Positions 38,968 through 48,386 of a DNA stretch of 64,000 nucleotides are shown here, piece by piece. Both the position numbers and the translations under genes were made by a program. Source of the DNA: an uncultured Gemmatimonadales bacterium (GTDB lineage Bacteria; Gemmatimonadota; Glassbacteria; GWA2-58-10); the NCBI GenBank assembly GCA_964548275.1, contig CAZJQI010000004.1, positions 13,149 to 77,148 on the forward strand, written 5' to 3'. How positions within the stretch are numbered: the stretch's first letter is position 1; each line of letters opens with the position of its first letter. The notes below the pieces were generated by a model. It did not search any database, had not been told where the DNA came from, and worked only from the letters and a program-made list of their open reading frames with translations.

Positions 38968-40287
38968 ATGGAAAACGAAGATAAGTACATAAAAAACATC
39001 GAACAGTATATCCGCAGCAGGGAACCTGCGAACCGGTCGGGTCTACTGCTGTGCGAAAGTGCCAAAAGGCTTGACATATCGATTTCCGACCTGCGACAAA
39101 TAGAAAAGCCCTATACCTTTATTTACCAGAGACTGCCGGTTGAAGTCGAGGGAGAAATCCTCAACTTCAGTTCAGGCATAGTCTTGCACAACAGAGCGCG
39201 GGGCCCATACAAGGGAGGCATCCGCATTGATCCGGACGTAGATATATGGGAAACCACAGAGCTGGCCCGCCTGATGACTATCAAAACCGCCCTGGCAAAC
39301 TTAGAGCTCGGCGGGGGTAAAACAGGAATCAAGGTCGATTTTGAAAAGATCTACAAGGGGCTTAAAGGAAAAAAGAACTTCGATCAGGATTTTTACCAGT
39401 TCTGCGACATGCTCAAAACCAATATCATGAAAGAATTTGTCGATCATTTCGTGGAGCGGGGGCTGGTGCGGATCTATATCCCGGCACCGGATATGGGCAG
39501 TTCCAGCCGTGAGATGATGTTTTTCTACAATCGCACTCACGACCCGGCCTCGGTTAGCGCCAAGCCGGATGGTATCGAGGGCTGGCTTCCGGGCAGGAAA
39601 GAAGCCACAGGCTTCGGTACAGCCTATGCAACTCTGAAATATCTGGATCAGATCGGGAAGGACCCCTCAAAAGTCACTGTCGCAATTCAGGGATTCGGCA
39701 ATGTGGGAAGTAATGCCGCCCATTACCTTTATAAGGCCGGCTGCAAGATAGTCGCTGTGACCGACCTGTACGGCGGAGTACACCATCGGTCCGGAATCGA
39801 TATCCCGGCATTGAAGGAGTATACGGAGGAAAACCGCACCGTGAAAGGTTTTGATGAAAAAAATGTTATCGATAACGAGGAACTGTTCAAGTTGCCGGTG
39901 GATATATTGATCCCAGCAGCAAGCGGCCACGTGATCAACCGTAAAAACTGCGATACCCTGGGGGTCAGGCTTGTGCTGGTCGAGGCTGCCAATATGCCGG
40001 TTTCCTACGAAGCTTTCGAACGGATCAGGGAAAAAGGAATCGAACTTCTGCCAGATAACTATGTCAACTCCGGAGGCGTTATCGCTTCTGACCTCGAATT
40101 CAGACAGGGTGTGGGTAGAGTACGCTACAACCGCGAGCAGGTGTTTGAACACTTGGAAAAAAGATTCGACGAAATGTTTGACGAAATGACAGAGAGGAAA
40201 GCTGCAGCAGGAAGTTTAACCCACGCCGCATACGATATTGCTGTGGAGCGTATTTATAACGCCATGAAAGCCAGAAGTCTTATTTAG
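38968..40287 (+). CDS. Glu/Leu/Phe/Val dehydrogenase family protein (glutamate dehydrogenase-like)
   Basis: ELFV_dehydrog N-terminal region (LELGGGKTGIKVD) and an NAD-binding Rossmann motif (GFGNVGSNAA). Confidence 0.7.
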   Translation: MENEDKYIKNIEQYIRSREPANRSGLLLCESAKRLDISISDLRQIEKPYTFIYQRLPVEVEGEILNFSSGIVLHNRARGPYKGGIRIDPDVDIWETTELARLMTIKTALANLELGGGKTGIKVDFEKIYKGLKGKKNFDQDFYQFCDMLKTNIMKEFVDHFVERGLVRIYIPAPDMGSSSREMMFFYNRTHDPASVSAKPDGIEGWLPGRKEATGFGTAYATLKYLDQIGKDPSKVTVAIQGFGNVGSNAAHYLYKAGCKIVAVTDLYGGVHHRSGIDIPALKEYTEENRTVKGFDEKNVIDNEELFKLPVDILIPAASGHVINRKNCDTLGVRLVLVEAANMPVSYEAFERIREKGIELLPDNYVNSGGVIASDLEFRQGVGRVRYNREQVFEHLEKRFDEMFDEMTERKAAAGSLTHAAYDIAVERIYNAMKARSLI

Positions 40288-40302
40288 TAATAAATCTACC
40301 TT

Positions 40303-40341
40303 AAAAAAAGCCCGCCTGAATTTCCCAGGCGGGCTTTTTTT
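40303..40341. terminator. Bidirectional rho-independent terminator
   Basis: A7, then stem gcccgcctg/caggcgggc, then T7. It sits between convergent genes. Confidence 0.8.
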
Positions 40342-40361
40342 ATCCAAAAGCAGGATTTCCG

Positions 40362-40772
40362 CTATTTCCCGCAGGTTTCCCGGATAAAACGTTCCAGTGC
40401 GGTTTCCATTTCTTCCTTTTTTAAATACGTCAAACCCACCAGAATCTCTCCCACCTTCATCCTCAGTTTTTCCTGGTTCTGAAGGAGCTTGCCGAGTTGA
40501 ACCTTATCTATCAGGTGTAAATGCTTGGCAGCCTCACCAAACTTTTCCCCGGATTCTTTCTGATATTCGAGGACATCAAAAATCTGGCCAATGGTGATAA
40601 TTTCCTGCATGTTTGCCAGTATACCCAGACGAAGGTTGATAGCATTCTGGATTGCAAGCGCATCGTCACGCTCTTCTGCGGATATCAACCTTTTTTCGAC
40701 CAGGAATTCGCCAAAACGCCGGATCCTGGCGGAAGTTTTTTCATCTGAAAAATCCTTATTTTCCTTGGACAT
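40362..40772 (-). CDS. Small protein with GspE/MshE N-terminal-like (T2SSE_N) repeats
   Basis: It has three repeats of the motif xGExLVExxLIxxEEL(D/E)xAL: FGEFLVEKRLISAEERDDALAIQ, FGEAAKHLHLIDKVQLGKLLQNQ and VGEILVGLTYLKKEEMETALERF. In MshE/PilB this domain binds c-di-GMP. Confidence 0.4.
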   Translation of the reverse strand: MSKENKDFSDEKTSARIRRFGEFLVEKRLISAEERDDALAIQNAINLRLGILANMQEIITIGQIFDVLEYQKESGEKFGEAAKHLHLIDKVQLGKLLQNQEKLRMKVGEILVGLTYLKKEEMETALERFIRETCGK

Positions 40773-40801
40773 CAGAAATTCCCTCCTAAGAATTACTTCG
40801 C

Positions 40802-41404
40802 TTAAGCCTTATCTTCGGGGCTCTTTTCCTTACCAGAGTTCTTTTCCTCAGTCGGGGGTTTTTCCTTGCTATCAGATTTTTTCTCTATATCAGCCTTTTG
40901 TTCGGTTTCGCCTTTTTTCTCGGCAGGAGTCTCTTGCTCAGCAGGAGCTTTTTCCTCGACTGGAGCTTCCGTCTGGGCTGCCGCCTTTTGCTCAGCAGGA
41001 GCCTGCTCTTTACTGACCACTTTCTCTTCAGCCGGTGTCTTTTCCTCAGTCGGGGTTTTTCCCTCGACTGGAGCTTCCGTCTGGGCTGCCGCCTTTTGCT
41101 CAGCAGGAGCCGGTTCCTTGCTAGCGGCTTTCTCTTCAACTGGAACCTGTTCCTCAACCGGAGCCTTCACCTCTTCTGCAACCCTGGTTTCGACCCGGAC
41201 TTTTTTCTTGCCTTTGGCGGCCGGGGCGGCAAGACGTTCCTCGTTCCTCACCAGAGAAACCAGTTTGCGTTGCACCCTTTTCAAACGCTTGTGAAACATG
41301 CGCAGCCTCGCCCTGTCAACTTCTTTTTCCTGAGCAAGCTGGGCTGTTTCTTCCTTGTATTTGGTAATTGTCTTTTCCAAAGTCTGCCTGGTTACCAAGT
41401 CCAC
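40802..41404 (-). CDS. Hypothetical protein with N-terminal coiled coil and Lys/Glu/Ala/Pro-rich repetitive tail
   Basis: The N-terminus is basic and helical. It carries a 36 aa tandem repeat (SKE[PQ]APAEQKAAAQTEAPVE...), encoded by a 108 bp DNA repeat. Confidence 0.5.
   Translation of the reverse strand: MDLVTRQTLEKTITKYKEETAQLAQEKEVDRARLRMFHKRLKRVQRKLVSLVRNEERLAAPAAKGKKKVRVETRVAEEVKAPVEEQVPVEEKAASKEPAPAEQKAAAQTEAPVEGKTPTEEKTPAEEKVVSKEQAPAEQKAAAQTEAPVEEKAPAEQETPAEKKGETEQKADIEKKSDSKEKPPTEEKNSGKEKSPEDKA
40950..41110. repeat. 108 bp-period tandem repeat inside the 40802-41404 coding sequence
   Basis: cctcgactggagcttccgtctgggctgccgccttttgctcagcaggagc occurs at about 40954 and again at about 41062. 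Confidence 0.6.
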
Positions 41405-41527
41405 CTCCTTAAGGGTCTATCCGTACACAGCGAATCATGTGTCTGGAATGTATATACAGATAGGCGGTTTTATCAAGCGAAATTTTCAACAGGCAGGAAT
41501 TTTGTTGCAAAAAAAACTGTTTTTCCC

Positions 41528-41556
41528 TTGACTTTCGCTTTTTTTTCGCTTATAGT
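41528..41556 (+). promoter_or_regulatory. Candidate sigma70 promoter (TTGACT-17-TATAGT) upstream of lexA
   Basis: ttgact at 41528-41533 and tatagt at 41551-41556. The spacer and surroundings repeat TTTTCGC four times. Confidence 0.45.
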
Positions 41557-41730
41557 AAGGCAGATTTTCGCTAAATTTTCGCCTTAAGGCTGGCAGATAG
41601 AGAGCGGCTTTATCGAGATAATAACTTTTGTGGGTGATCTGATCCCCGAAATTTAATACAACCTGCTTGATACATTGTCCGAACCTTTTGCTGAAGGAGG
41701 GATCATGTACCTGTTGCTGGAGGAGGGATC

Positions 41731-42339
41731 ATGTACCTGACCCGGCGTCAGAAAGAGATTCTCGACTTCATCGAAAATCACATCGAGAATGTCGGCTACG
41801 CGCCCAGCATCGAGGATATCTGCTCACAGTTCGGCCTGAGTTCAACCGCCACAGTGCACAAGCATCTGTCAAATCTGGAACAGAAAGGGCTTATCCGCCG
41901 CTTCCCCAACCGCAGCCGCGCGATTGAACTCTGCCGCATAGAGAGAGTTCCGTATGGCGCGGTGGTCTCTGCGCCTCTGCTGGGCCGGATAGCCGCGGGC
42001 AGGCCGATCGAGGTGGTTGAGGTGCCCGAGAGTATCGAGTTGCCGGAGAGCATGGTGGGCAAGCGGCCCACTTTCGTGCTCAAGGTTGAGGGAGACTCGA
42101 TGATTGATGAGCAGATCCGCGACGGGGACTACGTGATTATGGAGCAGAGCGCCACAGCCGAGGACGGCCAGATCGTGGTGGCCCTGATCGGTGGGGAAGA
42201 GGCCACGCTCAAGCGCTTTTACCGTGAGAAAGACGGTGTGCGTCTTCAGCCGGCCAATGTCAATATGTCACCGGTTATCCTGAAAGACGGCGAGTTCCAG
42301 ATCCAGGGCGTGGTTATCGGTGTGCTGCGCAAGTACTAG
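41731..42339 (+). CDS. lexA: LexA repressor (S24 peptidase)
   Basis: N-terminal winged HTH. The S24 domain has catalytic Ser in GDSMID. An Ala-Gly cleavage region is present (RIAAGRPI). Confidence 0.95.
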   Translation: MYLTRRQKEILDFIENHIENVGYAPSIEDICSQFGLSSTATVHKHLSNLEQKGLIRRFPNRSRAIELCRIERVPYGAVVSAPLLGRIAAGRPIEVVEVPESIELPESMVGKRPTFVLKVEGDSMIDEQIRDGDYVIMEQSATAEDGQIVVALIGGEEATLKRFYREKDGVRLQPANVNMSPVILKDGEFQIQGVVIGVLRKY

Positions 42340-42679
42340 ATGTTTGAATGAAGATACCCTGAGATTTTCAACGTTATTTTTTTGCTAACTCATCATGGTA
42401 ATTGTCACGGCACTTCAAGCGGCCGTAGGCCGCACCCGGGGCCGCTTGTCTGAGCCGGGCAAGAGGAGCGTGTAGTTGACAAGCAATTTCCATCGGTGTA
42501 TCCGCGAAGCTGCTGAAGGCAGGCGAGTTGCGGCCTCGAAGAGATTTTTGCTACTTTTGATCGCTTGCAAAAGTAGAAGAAGCTTTTGATGAATATATCT
42601 TGGATTTTCATGCTTCGTTGTGTCAGAAAGCAGACATGAGGGTTTACGACTCTTACACTCAGAGTTCGGAGGAAAAAGA

Positions 42680-42848
42680 GATGAAAAGCAGACTCGTCGC
42701 CTACGGCAGGATTCAGAAAGGCCGCCCGGGCAGATGCCAACTGGTGCTGCTCGATGACCGTCTCTGCCCGGAGGGCAGCGGGCTAGCCGCTTTGCTCCAG
42801 AGATGGCGCAAGGCTTTCCGTACCCGGGTGAGCCTGGTCAGGCGCTGA
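42680..42848 (+). CDS. Small basic ORF (55 aa) between lexA and dinB with a strong RBS
   Basis: ggagg lies 8 nt upstream of the ATG. Sequence: MKSRLVAYGRIQKGRPGRCQLVLLDDRLCPEGSG... It stops 15 nt before dinB. No family was recognised. Confidence 0.3.
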
Positions 42849-42863
42849 AAGGGAGTACTGTAG

Positions 42864-44072
42864 ATGGACAGGCATATCGTGCATATCGACATGGATGCCT
42901 TTTTCGTTTCTGTGGAGCGCTCGCGCGACCCCTCGCTGATCGGCCGCCCGGTGGTGGTCGGGGCTGTGGAGGGCAGCCGGGGCGTGGTGGCCTCGGCCTC
43001 CTACGAGGCCCGGCGCTACGGGATACGCTCGGCAATGCCCGTAGCCCAGGCGCGCAAACTCTGCATGCACGCCGTGTTCCTGCCCGGGAACATGGGGCTC
43101 TATGTCAAGGTCTCCCGCGCCATCCGCGAGATCCTCCAGTCGTGGACTCCGCTGGTGCAGATGAGTTCGATAGACGAGGCCTACCTTGATCTCACCGGGT
43201 TCGACCGCTGCTACGGACCCATTCTCGGCACGGTGGATCGCATCCTGCGCCAGGTCCGCGACACTCTCGGCCTTGAGCTTTCAGCCGGGGTTGCCGCCAA
43301 CAAGCTGGTGGCCAAAATCGCCTCGAAAACTGCCAAGCCCTCCGGGCTGTTGTGGGTACTTCCGGGACGCGAGAAGCAGTTTATGGCGCCCCTGCCTCTG
43401 GAGGAGGTGCCAGGGGTGGGCGAGGCTTTGAGCAAACGCCTCTGTGGCCTGGACCTGACTACAGTAGGCGAGTTGAGGAGGCTCGAACTGGGGCTTCTGG
43501 TCCGGGTTTTCGGTGTTGCAGGCGAGTGGCTCTACGACATGGCCCGGGGCCGGGGAAGCCTGAGAGTAGAGTCCGAAAGGCCCCCGGTCAAGTCCGTGGG
43601 CAATTCGGTCACTTTCAGCGAGGATACTGTGAACCGCCGCTTTCTGGAAGGAGTGCTCTATCACCTGGCCGAAAAGGTGGGCGCCAGGACACGCCGCAAG
43701 GGCTTTGTCGGACGCACGGTGAGTTTGCGCCTGAGATATTCGGATTTCAAGACAGTCACCCGCTCGATCTCCGCCGGGGTCGGTACGAACTGTGATACGG
43801 AAATATTCGAGCAGGCGCGCCGGCTGATGATCCCGTTGTTAGAGCGCAGGGTCAGGGTGCGCCTGCTGGGAGTCACTCTTTCCAACCTCCGGCCCGCAGA
43901 CAGCCAGCTCGACCTTTTTACCTCAGGTCTCCAGATGCGAAGCCTGCGCTTTTACCGCACAGTGGACAGCCTGAGGGAAAAATACGGTTTCGACTCTGTG
44001 CGCAAGGGGCGCGCTCTCTGGCTCGATAATTTTCGCCGCCCGCCCGAGTACGCCCGGCGCAAGGCAGGGTGA
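42864..44072 (+). CDS. dinB: Y-family DNA polymerase IV (DinB-like, catalytic residues intact)
   Basis: DMDAFFVSVE and SIDEAYLDLTG carry the catalytic Asp and Glu. IMS family. It lies downstream of lexA. Confidence 0.9.
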   Translation: MDRHIVHIDMDAFFVSVERSRDPSLIGRPVVVGAVEGSRGVVASASYEARRYGIRSAMPVAQARKLCMHAVFLPGNMGLYVKVSRAIREILQSWTPLVQMSSIDEAYLDLTGFDRCYGPILGTVDRILRQVRDTLGLELSAGVAANKLVAKIASKTAKPSGLLWVLPGREKQFMAPLPLEEVPGVGEALSKRLCGLDLTTVGELRRLELGLLVRVFGVAGEWLYDMARGRGSLRVESERPPVKSVGNSVTFSEDTVNRRFLEGVLYHLAEKVGARTRRKGFVGRTVSLRLRYSDFKTVTRSISAGVGTNCDTEIFEQARRLMIPLLERRVRVRLLGVTLSNLRPADSQLDLFTSGLQMRSLRFYRTVDSLREKYGFDSVRKGRALWLDNFRRPPEYARRKAG

Positions 44073-44246
44073 GGGGGATAAACAAGATAAATTTTGACAA
44101 AACAAATTTTTTGGGGTAGTCTCAATATAGATGTTTAATTTGTAATGACAATGCTGATATAAAATTATAGAGAATACTAAATCGGCGGCATAAGTCGATA
44201 GATAGTTTTATTTAGCAACTTAAATTTTGTATCGGAGAATAGCAGA

Positions 44247-45359
44247 ATGACTATCCCTAAAGAGATAACATGGCCAATAGACCCTCATACCAAAGCAAAA
44301 CATGAAATTCTAAGACGTTATCTTGAAGCTTGGTTTCCCATACTTAATAAATATCACAGTCGTCTTGTTTATATTGATGGATTTTGTGGCCCAGGGCGCT
44401 ATGAGGGGGGAGAACTTGGTTCACCTATCATTGCTTTAAGAACTGCTATAGACCATACGAGAAAAATGCAAGGTAAACTTATTTTCAGGTTTACTGACAG
44501 AGATGAACAAAGGGTGGAACATCTTCGAAACGAATTAAATAAATTAGAAAATCAAATGCCGAGTAACTTCGATGTCCGAGTAAATTGTTGTGAGTTTGCT
44601 GATAAACTCGAAGAAATTTTATTTTATGTAGAAAAGCAGAATATCGAACTACCGCCGACTTTTGCGTTTATAGATCCTTTTGGTTTTTCAGGAATACCTT
44701 TCGATTTAATAAAGCGATTATTGAGCCATCGAAGTTGTGAAGTGCTCATAACTCTTATGGTTGATGCTATTAATAGGTTTGTAGAGCACCCCAGAGACAG
44801 GCTAACAAGGCATATCGTTGAGGCCTTTGGGACAGAAGAAAGTATTTGTATTGCTGAAAAAGTTGATAAAGAGGGTAAGGACAGAATTACTGAGCTAAGA
44901 ATGCTGTATCAAAAACAATTGAACCAAGTGGCTGCTTTCGTTCGCTATTTTGAGATGCGAGACTGTGACAACAAAACTATATATTATTTGTTTTTTGCTA
45001 CAAACCATAGAAGAGGACATTTAAAGATGAAAGAAGCTATGTGGAAGGTAGATCCTGGTGGTGATTTCGTATATTCTGATGCAACAGACCCAAATCAGAG
45101 AACGCTTTTTAAAGACGAGTGTATCGTACCCGATCTCTCGGCTATTCTTGAGGGAAAATTTAAAGGCCAAAAAAATGTCAAAGGGGAGATTATAAGGCTG
45201 TTTGTAGAGGATGACACCGCATTTCTAAATAAACATAAGAAGACAGTGCTTGAAAAAATGGAGTCATTACATAAAATTGAAGTCTGTCCAGAAAAATTAC
45301 TTGGTGGAAAGAGGGCACCAAACACTTACCCGGATAAAGCGCTTATAACATTCTTTTAA
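44247..45359 (+). CDS. TcmP-like partner protein (SAM-methyltransferase-like fold?), low GC
   Basis: 370 aa. YIDGFCGPG resembles SAM-methyltransferase motif I (FxGxG). Its start is reminiscent of the 'three-Cys-motif partner protein TcmP' family as I recall it, which I cannot verify. GC is about 38% against about 58% in the flanks. It is tightly linked to the radical SAM gene, with a 10 nt gap. Confidence 0.55.
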   Translation: MTIPKEITWPIDPHTKAKHEILRRYLEAWFPILNKYHSRLVYIDGFCGPGRYEGGELGSPIIALRTAIDHTRKMQGKLIFRFTDRDEQRVEHLRNELNKLENQMPSNFDVRVNCCEFADKLEEILFYVEKQNIELPPTFAFIDPFGFSGIPFDLIKRLLSHRSCEVLITLMVDAINRFVEHPRDRLTRHIVEAFGTEESICIAEKVDKEGKDRITELRMLYQKQLNQVAAFVRYFEMRDCDNKTIYYLFFATNHRRGHLKMKEAMWKVDPGGDFVYSDATDPNQRTLFKDECIVPDLSAILEGKFKGQKNVKGEIIRLFVEDDTAFLNKHKKTVLEKMESLHKIEVCPEKLLGGKRAPNTYPDKALITFF

Positions 45360-45369
45360 TTGGATAATC

Positions 45370-46416
45370 ATGGGCAACCAAGTGACATTTAAATGCTCGA
45401 AAGCTGTTAAATCAGAAACTGTCCGTGGTATCCCCACCGTACACCGCGGATCGTTCATAAAGCAGTTTGGCGGACCGGGAGACGATACTAGCATAGTGTG
45501 TTTCAAGTTCTGGGAGCTTGTGGTTGCCGCGGGCTGTCCTTTCTCGTGTTCTTATTGTTTCCTTCAAGCCACGCCTTCTTATGTATTCGGGCACTATCCG
45601 ATAAAAGGAGCGATATTTGAAAATTGGCAGGATATGGTTGCAGAGGTTGAGAAATGGCTGAAGCACCCGACCCCTCGCATGCTTGTAATTGGTGAGTTGC
45701 AAGACGGCCTGGCTTTTGATTCTGCTTACAGGAAAGTTGCGGGTAAGGCTCTTACTGAAATGCTCATACCACTATTTGCACGGCAAAAGAAACACAGACT
45801 CCTTTTTTTAACAAAATCAACAGTTATTAAGAACGCTTTAAAGCTTACCCCGACAGAACAAGTGATTTTTTCCTGGTCTGTTAATGCAGAGGAGGTTTCT
45901 CGCCGCTGGGAGAAAGGTGCGCCTTCGCCAAAAAGGCGTATTGAAGCCGCGCACAGAATGAAAGAGGCAGGTTGGCCGGTCAGATTCCGTCTCGATCCGA
46001 TGGTGCCATTTGATGGATGGCAGGAGGGTTATGGAGAAATTATAGAGCAACTCAATGAGCTGAATCCTGAAATGATTACAATAGGGGCGTTGCGCGCATC
46101 AAATACCTTGAAAGCACACGCAAAACGGAATGGCCGGGACGCTTCTATATTTAATATGCTTTCGGTAAAAGACCCGAGTGGTTTTAAATGGCGTCTTCCT
46201 CATGAAATACAGGTCGAGCTATTTCGCTTTGCCTACCAGAATATCGACAAGAGTAAAATTATCCCTGCTCTTTGCAAGGAAGATTTATCGATTTGGAAAG
46301 AGGTTGATATGGAATTCAAAGGCTGCCACTGCTTGATCGGGGAAAGTGATGAAATTGTGAAGGAACGTAAAAAGAGTTTCACGCGTCGGATTAGTGGTGG
46401 CAGGCCCACGGAGTAA
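45370..46416 (+). CDS. Radical SAM protein of the spore-photoproduct-lyase-like (SplB/COG1533 'DNA repair photolyase') family
   Basis: AAGCPFSCSYCF is a CxxxCxxC iron-sulfur motif in the GCxFxCxYC context typical of SplB-like enzymes. 348 aa. Reduced GC, about 47%. Confidence 0.75.
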   Translation: MGNQVTFKCSKAVKSETVRGIPTVHRGSFIKQFGGPGDDTSIVCFKFWELVVAAGCPFSCSYCFLQATPSYVFGHYPIKGAIFENWQDMVAEVEKWLKHPTPRMLVIGELQDGLAFDSAYRKVAGKALTEMLIPLFARQKKHRLLFLTKSTVIKNALKLTPTEQVIFSWSVNAEEVSRRWEKGAPSPKRRIEAAHRMKEAGWPVRFRLDPMVPFDGWQEGYGEIIEQLNELNPEMITIGALRASNTLKAHAKRNGRDASIFNMLSVKDPSGFKWRLPHEIQVELFRFAYQNIDKSKIIPALCKEDLSIWKEVDMEFKGCHCLIGESDEIVKERKKSFTRRISGGRPTE

Positions 46417-46538
46417 TGCCTATGATTTCTTCCAACTAATTCTATTATCTTAACTTATTCTCCAAGAACATCTTTGGTTGTTAAACGCCGGTAGCCTTAT
46501 GCTCCCGACGCAAAGGATATTTTTGTCTAAAAAAGGTC

Positions 46539-46850
46539 ATGGGTTTGGATTTCGTTCATCTCAGATGCCACAACAATTTTTCGCTCCTTGAGGGCGCCGC
46601 CACTGCTCAGCAGCTTCTCGAGGCTGCCAGGGCACGCGGTTTCCGCGCCTTGGCGCTCACAGACACCAACGGGCTCTATGCAGCGGTCACTTTCGCCAAA
46701 AAAGCGCAAGAATTGGGGATCAAGCCGATCTTTGGCGCCGACCAGGGGGGGGGCGTTCTCCGGAGTATCGAAAGCGGCCTTGTCAGCCGGGAGGTGAACG
46801 GCCGGAAAGTTACCTGTGGATGGTTTCGTATTTGCGCTTTTCGTGGATAA
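46539..46850 (+). pseudogene. dnaE2: 5' remnant of error-prone DNA polymerase DnaE2/ImuC (PHP domain), truncated
   Basis: FVHLRCHNNFSLLEGAATAQQLLEAARARGFRALALTDTNGLYAAVTFAKKAQELGIKPIFGAD matches the DnaE2 N-terminal PHP domain. Similarity stops at a G9 homopolymer near 46745. The frame then runs into the convergent yihY gene, so only about 70 of about 1000 codons remain. Confidence 0.6.
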
Positions 46851-47652
46851 AGGCGATCTCTGCTGCTACCACATAGACCAGCGAGGAGATGTAAAACCAG
46901 AAAATCATCACCACGAAAGCGCCCAGCGTCCCGTAAATCCGGTTAAAATCAGGGTACATGTGAAGGAAAAGTATATAGAGTTGCTTGGTGATTTCAATAA
47001 CCACTGCCGCGATTGAGGTAGCGATCAGGCAGGTTTGGTTCCTCATGCTTTTCGAAGGGAAGAATTTGTAGCTGATAAACAGCAGAGCCACGGTTAGCAG
47101 AAAGGTGAGAATGATTCCGATAAGATGGCTTTCGAGTACCTGCAGAAGAGAGAATACTTTATTGTTGAAAAGAATGCTTTCTCTGAAAAGTCTGGGCAGG
47201 AAAATGATAGTCAGGTTGGCCACGATCATCATGATTCCCAGCAGAAGAAGCAACATGAAATCGAACACCTTGCCATGAATTATCCCGCGCGTATGTTTGG
47301 CCTCGAAAACGATATCCAGCACTGTTCTCAGGCTGGCGAACAACCTTGTCGCCGTGAAAGCGAATATCCCCAGACCGATAATTCCGATCCAGGTACGGTC
47401 CTGGATCAATCTCTGAGTGTTGGTAATAATACTTTCGCTCGAAACCGGAATCAGGCTCTGGATATAAACAACGGTCTTATCCCAGAGTTCGGCTGAACTG
47501 CTGAACGCGAAACCCGCGATAGAAAAAAGTATCAGGATCAACGGAATGGTGGTGATCACCACGTTGAAGGCTATCCCTGAGGCGAGAAACAGGGTGTCAT
47601 CCTTGATTAACTTGAACCAGAGGTTTTTGATATAGTACCAGAGCAAGTACAT
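46810..47652 (-). CDS. yihY: YihY/BrkB-family inner-membrane protein
   Basis: Virul_fac_BrkB family signature GIAFNVVITTIPLILILFS. Polytopic. Confidence 0.8.
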   Translation of the reverse strand: MYLLWYYIKNLWFKLIKDDTLFLASGIAFNVVITTIPLILILFSIAGFAFSSSAELWDKTVVYIQSLIPVSSESIITNTQRLIQDRTWIGIIGLGIFAFTATRLFASLRTVLDIVFEAKHTRGIIHGKVFDFMLLLLLGIMMIVANLTIIFLPRLFRESILFNNKVFSLLQVLESHLIGIILTFLLTVALLFISYKFFPSKSMRNQTCLIATSIAAVVIEITKQLYILFLHMYPDFNRIYGTLGAFVVMIFWFYISSLVYVVAAEIAFIHEKRKYETIHR

Positions 47653-47744
47653 TTAATTGCCTGGGTGCAGGTTCTGTTTTAGCTTATCAATAAGAAAATC
47701 AAACAGCATAGAATTTAGAATTAGTGCTCACGGAAGTCAAATAA

Positions 47745-48386
47745 ATGAGAATAACGTGTGTTTCGGCTTTTAAAATGGAAGCTGCATGGCTTTTGTCCAG
47801 GCTCACGGATACCCGGAAGTTCAAAATTGATAGAATACGTGCCTGGACCGGCAGGGTTGGAGAACACGAGGTAAGTTTTCTGATCTGTGGGGTGGGTCCG
47901 GATAAGGCCAGGCAGAGCCTGGAAAGGTATGGCTTGCTTCAGGAAGCGGAACGTATCTTTCACCTGGGTGTCTGTGGAGCACTTCACACGGGTCTTTCAC
48001 GATATAAAACATTAATAGCTGAAACGGTAGCAGCCACTTACAAACCAGAGAGCTGCCCGATCCGGCTGAGCGATCTGGATGACCAGTTATTAGCAGGCCT
48101 CGAAGCCGGTCAAGTTCCTGTCAAAGGGAAAATCCTCACTCATCCGTGGCCTGTTTTCTCCAGCCGATTGCGCAATAACCTTCACAGACGATTCGGCGCT
48201 GATTGTGTAGATATGGAGGCCTGGGAGGTAGCATCATACTGCCGGCGAAGAGATATTCCCCTTACCCTGGTCAAGGCAGTCAGTGATTTCGCAGATGAGA
48301 AATCCGCTGTCAGCTTTCCTTTCCATGCCCGAAAAGCAGCCCAGGCAGCAGGGCAGATTGTGCTTGCCATGCTGAGAGCTTTATGA
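47745..48386 (+). CDS. PNP_UDP_1-family nucleosidase (MTA/SAH nucleosidase or futalosine hydrolase-like)
   Basis: Motifs ICGVGPDKA, DMEAWEVA and KAVSDFAD. The 213 aa length fits MqnB/MtnN. Confidence 0.6.
   Translation: MRITCVSAFKMEAAWLLSRLTDTRKFKIDRIRAWTGRVGEHEVSFLICGVGPDKARQSLERYGLLQEAERIFHLGVCGALHTGLSRYKTLIAETVAATYKPESCPIRLSDLDDQLLAGLEAGQVPVKGKILTHPWPVFSSRLRNNLHRRFGADCVDMEAWEVASYCRRRDIPLTLVKAVSDFADEKSAVSFPFHARKAAQAAGQIVLAMLRAL

Follow-up and report, generated by a model that had tools for sequence, protein, structure and literature searches.

The question raised by this locus is whether a short open reading frame (ORF) at 46539-46850, on the plus strand of a 64-kb stretch of DNA from an uncultured Gemmatimonadales bacterium (the window, by which we mean the whole 64,000 nucleotides analysed), is a gene in its own right, the relic of a larger one or a product of faulty assembly. 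As called, the ORF encodes 103 amino acids (aa); it begins with 68 codons of a DnaE-type PHP domain and ends inside the convergent yihY gene. A preliminary description had taken it for a truncated dnaE2 (imuC) whose similarity ends at a run of nine G residues (G9), in a decayed cassette of lexA and a Y-family polymerase where a foreign island occupies the place of imuA and imuB. We consider it very probable that the ORF, a chimeric pseudogene reading frame, is the non-functional remnant of an accessory DnaE-family polymerase gene deleted from an SOS-type cassette. Pseudogenisation of this sort is ordinary, and the kind of cassette concerned has been described recently.

In the ancestral locus the cassette consisted of lexA, a 55-codon ORF (orf55), polY and a dnaE of ~1056 codons (PHP, Pol3 core, HhH and OB, without a tau-binding domain), with yihY convergent to it. 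In the lineage of the window, a 2.45-kb segment of low GC content, carrying TcmP and radical-SAM genes, has replaced the spacer between polY and dnaE up to the dnaE start codon. Some 2.9 kb of dnaE were lost between two in-phase copies of GGCGCCGA, presumably by slippage or illegitimate recombination at this short direct repeat, fusing codon 65 to the last 20 codons. The G tract 3' of the junction has, then or beforehand, grown from G6TT to G9 (+1 nucleotide, nt), leaving the tail to be read past its old stop into yihY.

Two ends of dnaE joined at a short repeat

The first part of the ORF is clearly DnaE. Residues 7-69 match Pfam PHP (PF02811) with E=4.2e-17 (63.4 bits against a cutoff of 26.4), and residues 4-68 correspond to the beginning of several NCBIfam DnaE models, about their first 65 positions (5-69 in the case of NF004226), which bears out the earlier claim that its first ~70 codons are the N-terminus of a DnaE PHP domain. 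At the DNA level this 5' remnant lies at 46545-46741 on the plus strand (ORF codons 3-68) and is 93.4% identical to positions 1124-1320 of L001, a relative with 93% DNA identity, where the same sequence forms the 5' end of an intact dnaE. Homology between the window and L001 is limited to 43048-44097 and 46545-46741, while from 46734 on, through yihY, the window is 96.4% identical to a second relative, L006. The L001 homology ends at 46741 and the L006 homology begins at 46734, and the 8 bp shared by both, 46734-46741, are the microhomology GGCGCCGA, the deletion junction, which is present in a single copy in the window. Alignment to these two relatives set the boundaries of both the deletion and the island.

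The 5' site of the repeat, seen in L001 and L011, encodes Gly-Ala-Glu (TTTGGCGCCGAG; codons 66-68, G-A-E/D), and the 3' site, seen in L006, encodes Gly-Ala-Asp 20 codons ahead of the stop. Because both copies of GGCGCCGA share the same codon phase, the deletion is in frame. Measured on the full-length DnaE of L007, it spans codons 64 to 1036, that is ~2916 bp or 972 of the 1056 codons (~92% of the gene), close to the loss of about 90% that had been estimated from the window.

Nor is the sequence past the breakpoint foreign to dnaE. The segment 46734-46797 (plus strand) is the 3'-terminal remnant of the same dnaE, with its last 20 codons and its former TGA at 46795-46797, 96% identical to L006 and now in the wrong frame; in L006 the frame-0 translation of this segment is the DnaE C-terminus ...GADQGGSFAGVSKAALSAGR, followed by the stop. 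The G9 homopolymer does exist, at 46745-46753 within gaccagggggggggcg in all six assemblies that carry the deletion, yet it is not where similarity ends: the breakpoint is the GGCGCCGA junction, 3 nt upstream. L006 has G6TT at the corresponding place and L007 has G3AATTT, so that the window has gained 1 nt net; GGGGGGTTC in L006 (GGGAATTTC in L007) became GGGGGGGGGC. Owing to this extra nucleotide the dnaE tail is translated out of frame as QGGGVLRSIESGLVSREVNGRKVTCGWFRICAFRG and on beyond its old stop into yihY, a run-on that the preliminary description had noticed, with a convergent overlap of 41 nt between the ORF (stop codon 46848-46850) and yihY (stop codon 46810-46812). The out-of-frame reading of the tail also accounts for an 82% match of residues 66-103 to a non-coding frame of L006. 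The G9 is derived, having expanded from a tract that the intact dnaE already had at its 3' end. A phase-variable tract was considered and rejected, the length being identical in the six assemblies.

In place of PHP, Pol3 core, fingers, HhH and OB in one frame, the window retains codons 1-68 and the last 20, frameshifted. A tblastn search with seven full or partial DnaE relatives found no further DnaE-like sequence in any frame of the 64 kb, and no full-length dnaE2 that continues past a frameshift. Deletion between short direct repeats, by replication slippage or illegitimate recombination, is an established route to bacterial pseudogenes. The window resembles such cases in that one copy of the 8-bp repeat is left exactly at the junction and the intervening 2.9 kb are gone; its only peculiarity is that the deletion is in frame and that a +1 change in the adjacent G tract came before or after it. 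The locus offers a cleanly resolved example of a short-repeat deletion with adjacent homopolymer drift.

The same structure recurs in six assemblies from different samples and assemblers, namely the window, L002 (ENA ERZ25073474), L005 (JGI Ga0114922), L095 (JGI 3300008516), L096 (JGI 3300028837) and L097 (Logan SRR3085435). L002 and L005 carry the same ORF, junction and G9 and are 99.7% and 99.8% identical to the window, and the other three show no difference from it over the cassette (100%); not a base of the junction or the G9 varies among the six, and the length of the G run is invariant. Over 5.5 kb the window and L002 differ at 16 positions, five of them within the 312-bp ORF (four clustered, one amino-acid change), which is compatible with relaxed constraint, the numbers being too small for proof. 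We infer that the 103-aa ORF is non-functional. Its proper annotation is as a pseudogene, and gene callers now emit a 103-aa 'PHP domain protein' in several public assemblies.

Relatives with the ancestral locus were found by context look-ups of the closest full-length proteins, by a metagenome scan with the window's YihY and by a genome scan with its DinB. The 72-aa stub as a protein query returned short fragments only, and the full-length genes were reached by the context look-ups. The DinB scan of the genome collection used the pattern HIDMDAFF, which is universal to Pol IV; 78 of its 80 loci were generic dinB, only L011 and L033 were informative, and the window's own species was not among the genomes retrieved. 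L007, L010 and L011 carry the full locus, in the order gene for a cyclic-di-GMP-binding protein, lexA, orf55, polY, dnaE, convergent yihY and PNP, and are related to the window with 85% (L007) and 70% (L010) identity in YihY and 79% (L011) in DinB. In L007 and L010 the dnaE is a single uninterrupted ORF, with 1056 and 1055 aa respectively, and in L011 one unbroken match extends over DnaE residues 1-1035. L033 has lexA, polY and dnaE at lower identity (DnaE 47%); L001 has polY, a 108-bp spacer and a dnaE that runs for more than 548 aa to the contig end; and in L006, a 97% relative, the intact dnaE 3' end abuts yihY. L003, a metagenome-assembled genome (MAG) labelled Candidatus Glassbacteria, and L004, labelled Gemmatimonadota, contain a long dnaE, a 55-aa ORF, convergent BrkB/yihY and the same PNP_UDP gene as the window.

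Two features recur in this synteny. First, dnaE and yihY are immediate neighbours in L006, L007, L008, L009, L010 and L011, while in L003 and L004 a further 55-aa ORF lies between them; yihY was already the convergent neighbour of dnaE in the ancestral locus. Second, polY is followed directly by dnaE, across a spacer of ~110-470 bp, in the intact relatives L007, L010, L011 and L033 (partially in L001), and neither imuA nor imuB is present in the window, in L007, L010, L011 and L033 or in any other of the relatives. The intact relatives support in substance the earlier idea of a decayed damage cassette in which lexA and a Y-family polymerase accompany a truncated accessory dnaE.

Two of the relatives have peculiarities of their own. 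L001 shows one apparent frameshift in polY (27-991) and one in dnaE (~1430), within 2.8 kb, either because the assembly is of low quality or because the cassette has decayed independently in that lineage. L011 (DATKXY010000130.1) is a MAG titled 'archaeon isolate SMAG_U14205', yet it has a typically bacterial lexA/polY/dnaE/yihY locus syntenic with the window, and its label is probably wrong.

The class of the lost polymerase and other readings of the locus

The kind of DnaE that was lost was judged from its full-length orthologue in L007. This protein has PHP, pol3_alpha, finger, HHH_6 and OB domains and ends ~30 aa past the OB fold; the DnaE1 model is matched only as far as position 1062 of 1146, and the protein lacks the C-terminal tau-binding domain, as an accessory DnaE would. 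That domain was found in no DnaE2 of a 2013 survey (PMC3919608). Over its full length the L007 protein scores 848 on the DnaE1 equivalog (cutoff 1002) and 710.5 on the error-prone model NF004225 (cutoff 939) and passes the superfamily model only. The C-terminal motif SRDF[H/R], which about 77% of DnaE2 proteins possess (PMC3919608), is absent from the C-termini ...SKADLSAGR (L007) and ...SKAALSAGR (L006).

As a control of these hidden Markov models (HMMs), N-terminal fragments of ~400 aa were scored against the error-prone and the DnaE1 model. Canonical DnaE2A and DnaE1 strongly prefer their own model, with 429 bits (error-prone) and 221 bits (DnaE1) for M. tuberculosis DnaE2A and 240 and 594 bits, in the same order, for E. 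coli DnaE1. Published DnaE2B proteins, taken from supplementary file 5 of PMC12926913, score about equally on both (195 and 237 bits for Cellulophaga, 207 and 208 bits for Rufibacter), and so does the L007 DnaE (314 and 346 bits), unlike either canonical class. On this pattern the lost gene was no canonical ImuC and behaves like the published PolY-linked DnaE2B class. The earlier label dnaE2 (imuC) was too specific, given that the L007 protein falls under the error-prone cutoff and does slightly better on the DnaE1 model.

These scores bring up the possibility that the ancestral gene encoded a second polymerase of the DnaE1 kind, with a role outside mutagenesis, and not a DnaE2-type translesion polymerase. 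The difference between 848 and 710 bits agrees with it, as does a PDB sequence search with the L007 DnaE, which returned replicative DnaE1 and PolC structures only, replicative DnaE1s being the best matches, and no solved DnaE2. The N-terminal 400 aa are likewise 35% identical in BLASTP to E. coli DnaE1, compared with 31-32% for DnaE2B and 30-33% for DnaE2A. Nevertheless, the full-length score is under the DnaE1 cutoff of 1002 and the C-terminal domain is missing, the gene shares an operon with lexA and an active polY in all relatives and is dispensable in the deletion lineage, and the published DnaE2B proteins show the same ambiguity. We therefore regard a DnaE1-like role as unlikely. Since the lineage persists in six samples without 92% of the gene, dnaE would seem to be dispensable in nature, which fits an accessory polymerase. 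Such natural dispensability of a PolY-linked DnaE supports an accessory (translesion) role for a poorly classified DnaE clade.

Modules without ImuA and ImuB that couple an active PolY bearing a RecA-NT motif to DnaE2, often together with lexA, have been described (PMC6511836; PMC12926913), as have SOS operons of Bacteroidetes in which DinB is combined with a Pol III alpha gene (PMC8565304). The present locus resembles the PolY-DnaE2B-RecA module in its active Y-family polymerase directly upstream of a DnaE without C-terminal domain (L001, L007, L010, L011 and L033), in the absence of imuA and imuB, in the frequent presence of lexA in the operon, in equally ambiguous NCBIfam scores and in a RecA-NT-like C-terminus of PolY (VDSLREKYGFDSVRKG in the window, MDHIRKKYGEKSIMRA in Cellulophaga). 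It differs in that the DnaE is 31-32% identical to Bacteroidetes DnaE2B over the N-terminal 400 aa, that the MAGs of the relatives bear the labels Candidatus Glassbacteria, Gemmatimonadota or 'archaeon' and not Bacteroidetes, that lexA and polY are separated by a conserved 55-aa ORF as an additional element, and that the DnaE partner in the window is destroyed. The ImuA-ImuB-DnaE2 (ImuC) cassette of Mycobacterium tuberculosis, Pseudomonas and Caulobacter is comparable in being LexA-linked and in combining a Y-family protein with a second, non-essential DnaE without C-terminal domain. Here, however, there is no ImuA, the Y-family member is catalytically intact and not a dead ImuB with ImuB-C, and the DnaE is under the error-prone HMM cutoff (710 vs 939) and without SRDF[H/R]. 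The lost DnaE may have acted in translesion synthesis with PolY and RecA, and its loss would have reduced the cassette from a PolY-DnaE-RecA to a PolY-RecA type of translesion system.

A further parallel is found on plasmid Do28_1 of Desulfosarcina ovata (NZ_AP021877.1), where lexA, a Y-family polymerase gene and a dnaE follow one another in the same order. Among 72,556 plasmids the DnaE encoded there is the best match to that of L007, with 41% identity over the full length. The arrangement differs from ours in being plasmid-borne, in having a DUF72 gene where orf55 stands and in a PolY that is annotated as hypothetical and whose called start leaves out the first catalytic motif. PolY-DnaE cassettes without ImuA and ImuB, recently described mainly in Bacteroidetes and Actinobacteria, reach other uncultured lineages and a Desulfosarcina plasmid. 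The plasmid locus (L093, record 59962-65737) comprises lexA, DUF72, the Y-family polymerase and Pol III alpha on a 136-kb mobilizable replicon, and DUF72 also adjoins the PolY-DnaE pair in L091.

It is conceivable, if improbable, that the uncultured lineages labelled Glassbacteria or Gemmatimonadota possess a distinct type of mutasome, made up of lexA, the 55-aa protein, an active RecA-NT PolY and a DnaE without C-terminal domain that is nearer to DnaE1 than to DnaE2A or the Bacteroidetes DnaE2B. If this were true, the 55-aa protein could be a small regulatory subunit, and the window would represent a natural knock-out of the DnaE component. The window lineage and a dnaE-bearing relative apparently belong to one JGI metagenome series, with neighbouring sample ids (3300028837 and 3300028897), and in that case mutation spectra with and without the polymerase could be compared.

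The remaining alternatives fare worse. That the 103-aa ORF, or the original in-frame fusion of 85 aa, is a maintained small protein, for example a PHP peptide that binds the Y-family polymerase, would suit an in-frame deletion and an ORF that has an ATG and is conserved in six assemblies; the PHP domain is also an interaction surface in modelled ImuB-DnaE2 complexes (PMC12926913). Yet the six assemblies are nearly clonal (99.7-100% identity), so their conservation is uninformative. Moreover, 65 residues do not make up even half of a PHP domain, the tail results from reading on in the wrong frame into yihY, the ORF takes up five of the 16 differences from L002, including the amino-acid change, and promoter- or terminator-like signals around the island and the ORF showed no excess over shuffled expectation. 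A maintained small protein is in our view very unlikely.

Still less credible is a split or rearranged dnaE whose missing body is encoded elsewhere in the genome, both parts being functional. Homologues in Bacteroidota and Ignavibacteria are indeed naturally split near residue 540 into two convergent ORFs, but here the gene is broken within the PHP fold, at residue 65, and not where those homologues divide. That the first 65 codons lead straight into the last 20 is what an internal deletion, as opposed to a translocation, leaves behind; the closest relatives have a single ORF of 1055-1056 aa, and the 64-kb window contains no C-terminal half. Finally, an assembly or sequencing artefact, in which a full-length dnaE exists and G9 caused mis-assembly or a false frameshift, has in its favour that homopolymers are error-prone and that L001 shows apparent frameshifts in polY and dnaE, but it is excluded because the window, the ENA assembly ERZ25073474, three metagenomes from JGI and Logan SRR3085435, which come from different samples, agree in every base of the junction and in the G9, yihY begins 13 nt past the old dnaE stop so that 2.9 kb do not fit, and DnaE similarity appears nowhere else in the window in any frame.

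The split homologues themselves are best seen in a Bacteroidetes MAG (GCA_018829205.1; L091/L092, 6001-9437), in which a PolY-linked DnaE is divided near residue 540 into an N-half with PHP and palm (559 aa, plus strand) and a C-half with fingers, HhH and OB (564 aa, minus strand), convergent and 62 bp apart. Many of the best DnaE matches are N-halves of 530-610 aa on long Bacteroidota or Ignavibacteria contigs. The idea that the split is an inverton was dropped, as no inverted repeats flank the inverted C-terminal half; a perfect 14+14 palindrome lies at the start of the C-half (L091 9423-9452).

Several points weigh against the account that we prefer, a remnant of an accessory polymerase gene deleted from an SOS-type cassette. 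The lost gene is classed as DnaE2 from architecture, context and dispensability and not from phylogeny, and in raw similarity its orthologue is slightly nearer to E. coli DnaE1 than to the DnaE2A and DnaE2B representatives. Although lexA is adjacent, no conserved palindrome upstream of the cassette could be assigned as a LexA operator in an upstream alignment. The account also presupposes a separate replicative dnaE or polC elsewhere in the genome, which we infer. Among the relatives examined none is close enough and has both a full-length dnaE and the island, and all six deletion-bearing assemblies carry island, deletion and G-run change together, which is compatible with any order of the three events.

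The low-GC island between polY and dnaE

Homology to L001 stops at 44097 and resumes at 46545, two points that are 108 bp apart in L001. Between them, at 44098-46544, the window carries an inserted island in place of the ancestral polY-dnaE spacer, which extends as far as the dnaE start codon, a TTG. The island has a GC content of 34-49%, compared with 59-67% for polY, and is absent from L007, L010 and L011. The segment 46470-46544 was considered as a diverged original spacer; being ~60% similar, compared with 93% in the flanking coding DNA, it was treated as replacement. At the boundaries there are no flanking repeats, target-site duplications or terminal inverted repeats. That the island is foreign, as had been proposed, holds; what it displaced was a spacer alone and not imuA and imuB, polY and dnaE being directly adjacent in the intact relatives.

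The island holds two genes, TcmP at 44247-45359 and a radical-SAM gene related to spore-photoproduct lyase (SPL-like) at 45370-46416. TcmP is well above cutoff on TIGR04474 (223.5 bits vs 53) and matches the PADLOC candidate defence model PDC-M30A (E=5e-53); the radical-SAM protein next to it carries a CxxxCxxC motif and itself matches no PADLOC model. With TcmP above cutoff and a radical SAM adjacent, the pair is a candidate phage-defence module. SplB-type radical-SAM genes are also reported to belong to the SOS regulon in Bacteroidetes (PMC8565304), and the position of a TcmP/SPL-like pair beside an SOS cassette may not be coincidental. For dnaE, the insertion could have meant uncoupling from the lexA/polY transcription unit or promoter, and hence relaxed selection before the deletion.

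Surviving cassette genes and local rearrangements

The first cassette gene, lexA, is at 41731-42339 (plus strand, 202 aa; TIGR00498 217.8 bits vs cutoff 111, Pfam LexA_DNA_bind and Peptidase_S24) and is syntenic in L007, L010, L011 and L033. It is followed at 42681-42848 (plus strand) by orf55, 15 nt upstream of polY. The orf55 protein is kept at the same position in L007 (88%), L011 (61%) and L010 (51%), with the pattern MKSRLVAYGRIQKGRP..C..VLLD.R.C....L.Q.W; its ~20 homologues are all unannotated and without Pfam match. It could be a small subunit or regulator of the cassette.

PolY, encoded at 42864-44072 (plus strand), is a Y-family DNA polymerase of the Pol IV/DinB type with 402 aa (Pfam IMS and IMS_C; NF002677 316.8 vs cutoff 256). 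The catalytic motifs HIDMDAFF (DMD) and SIDEAYLD (SIDE) and a QLDLF clamp motif are present, and the enzyme is intact, as first described; a reading as an ImuB-type protein does not agree with this catalytically intact Pol IV-type enzyme. After QLDLF all cassette PolYs have ..VDxLRxKYGFxSVxKG.., which aligns to the N-terminus of RecA (MAFFT). At the C-terminus of the window's PolY the motif reads VDSLREKYGFDSVRKG; it can be aligned with its counterpart in PolY proteins published as partners of DnaE2B and matches the C-termini of ADV50500 and AKQ45465. Compared by BLASTP with the N-terminus of E. coli RecA, the PolY C-terminus gave no match, and the RecA-NT likeness is at the motif level only. 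The polY that survives probably retains its function as a translesion polymerase of the PolY-RecA type. On the other side of the deletion, the YihY/BrkB-family membrane protein gene is intact at 46810-47652 (minus strand, 280 aa; Pfam Virul_fac_BrkB E=1.6e-41).

The locus is a local rearrangement hot spot, with a duplication at the start of lexA, a 5' deletion of lexA in one sample, an insertion of ~300 bp and the insertion of the defence island. The duplication is a 26-bp tandem repeat at 41688-41739 (TTGCTGAAGGAGGGATCATGTACCTG / TTGCTGGAGGAGGGATCATGTACCTG), which doubles the ribosome binding site, the ATG and the first three codons and creates an upstream ORF of 11 codons overlapping the true start at 41731; it is common to L095 and L097 and absent in L007, L010 and L011. 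In L096, an otherwise identical assembly, a 138-bp deletion (window ~41691-41828) has removed the lexA ribosome binding site, start codon and approximately the first 32 codons, and lexA is called there as 161 aa; this may be a lexA-defective variant within the population. Between the lexA stop and orf55 the window has ~300 bp extra (42342-42650) where relatives have 40-100 bp. This segment has no Rfam match and no second copy in the window and holds two hairpins, at 42416-42448 and 42546-42581; an Rfam scan of 40000-48000 gave nothing relevant, with only sub-threshold terminator-like matches at 40271-40398. Upstream of the cassette, on the minus strand at 40802-41404, lies an ORF of 200 aa rich in Lys, Glu, Ala and Pro with internal repeats (KEQAPAEQKAAAQTEAPVE...). 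Its counterpart in L095 is called as 192 aa, which suggests variation in repeat number.

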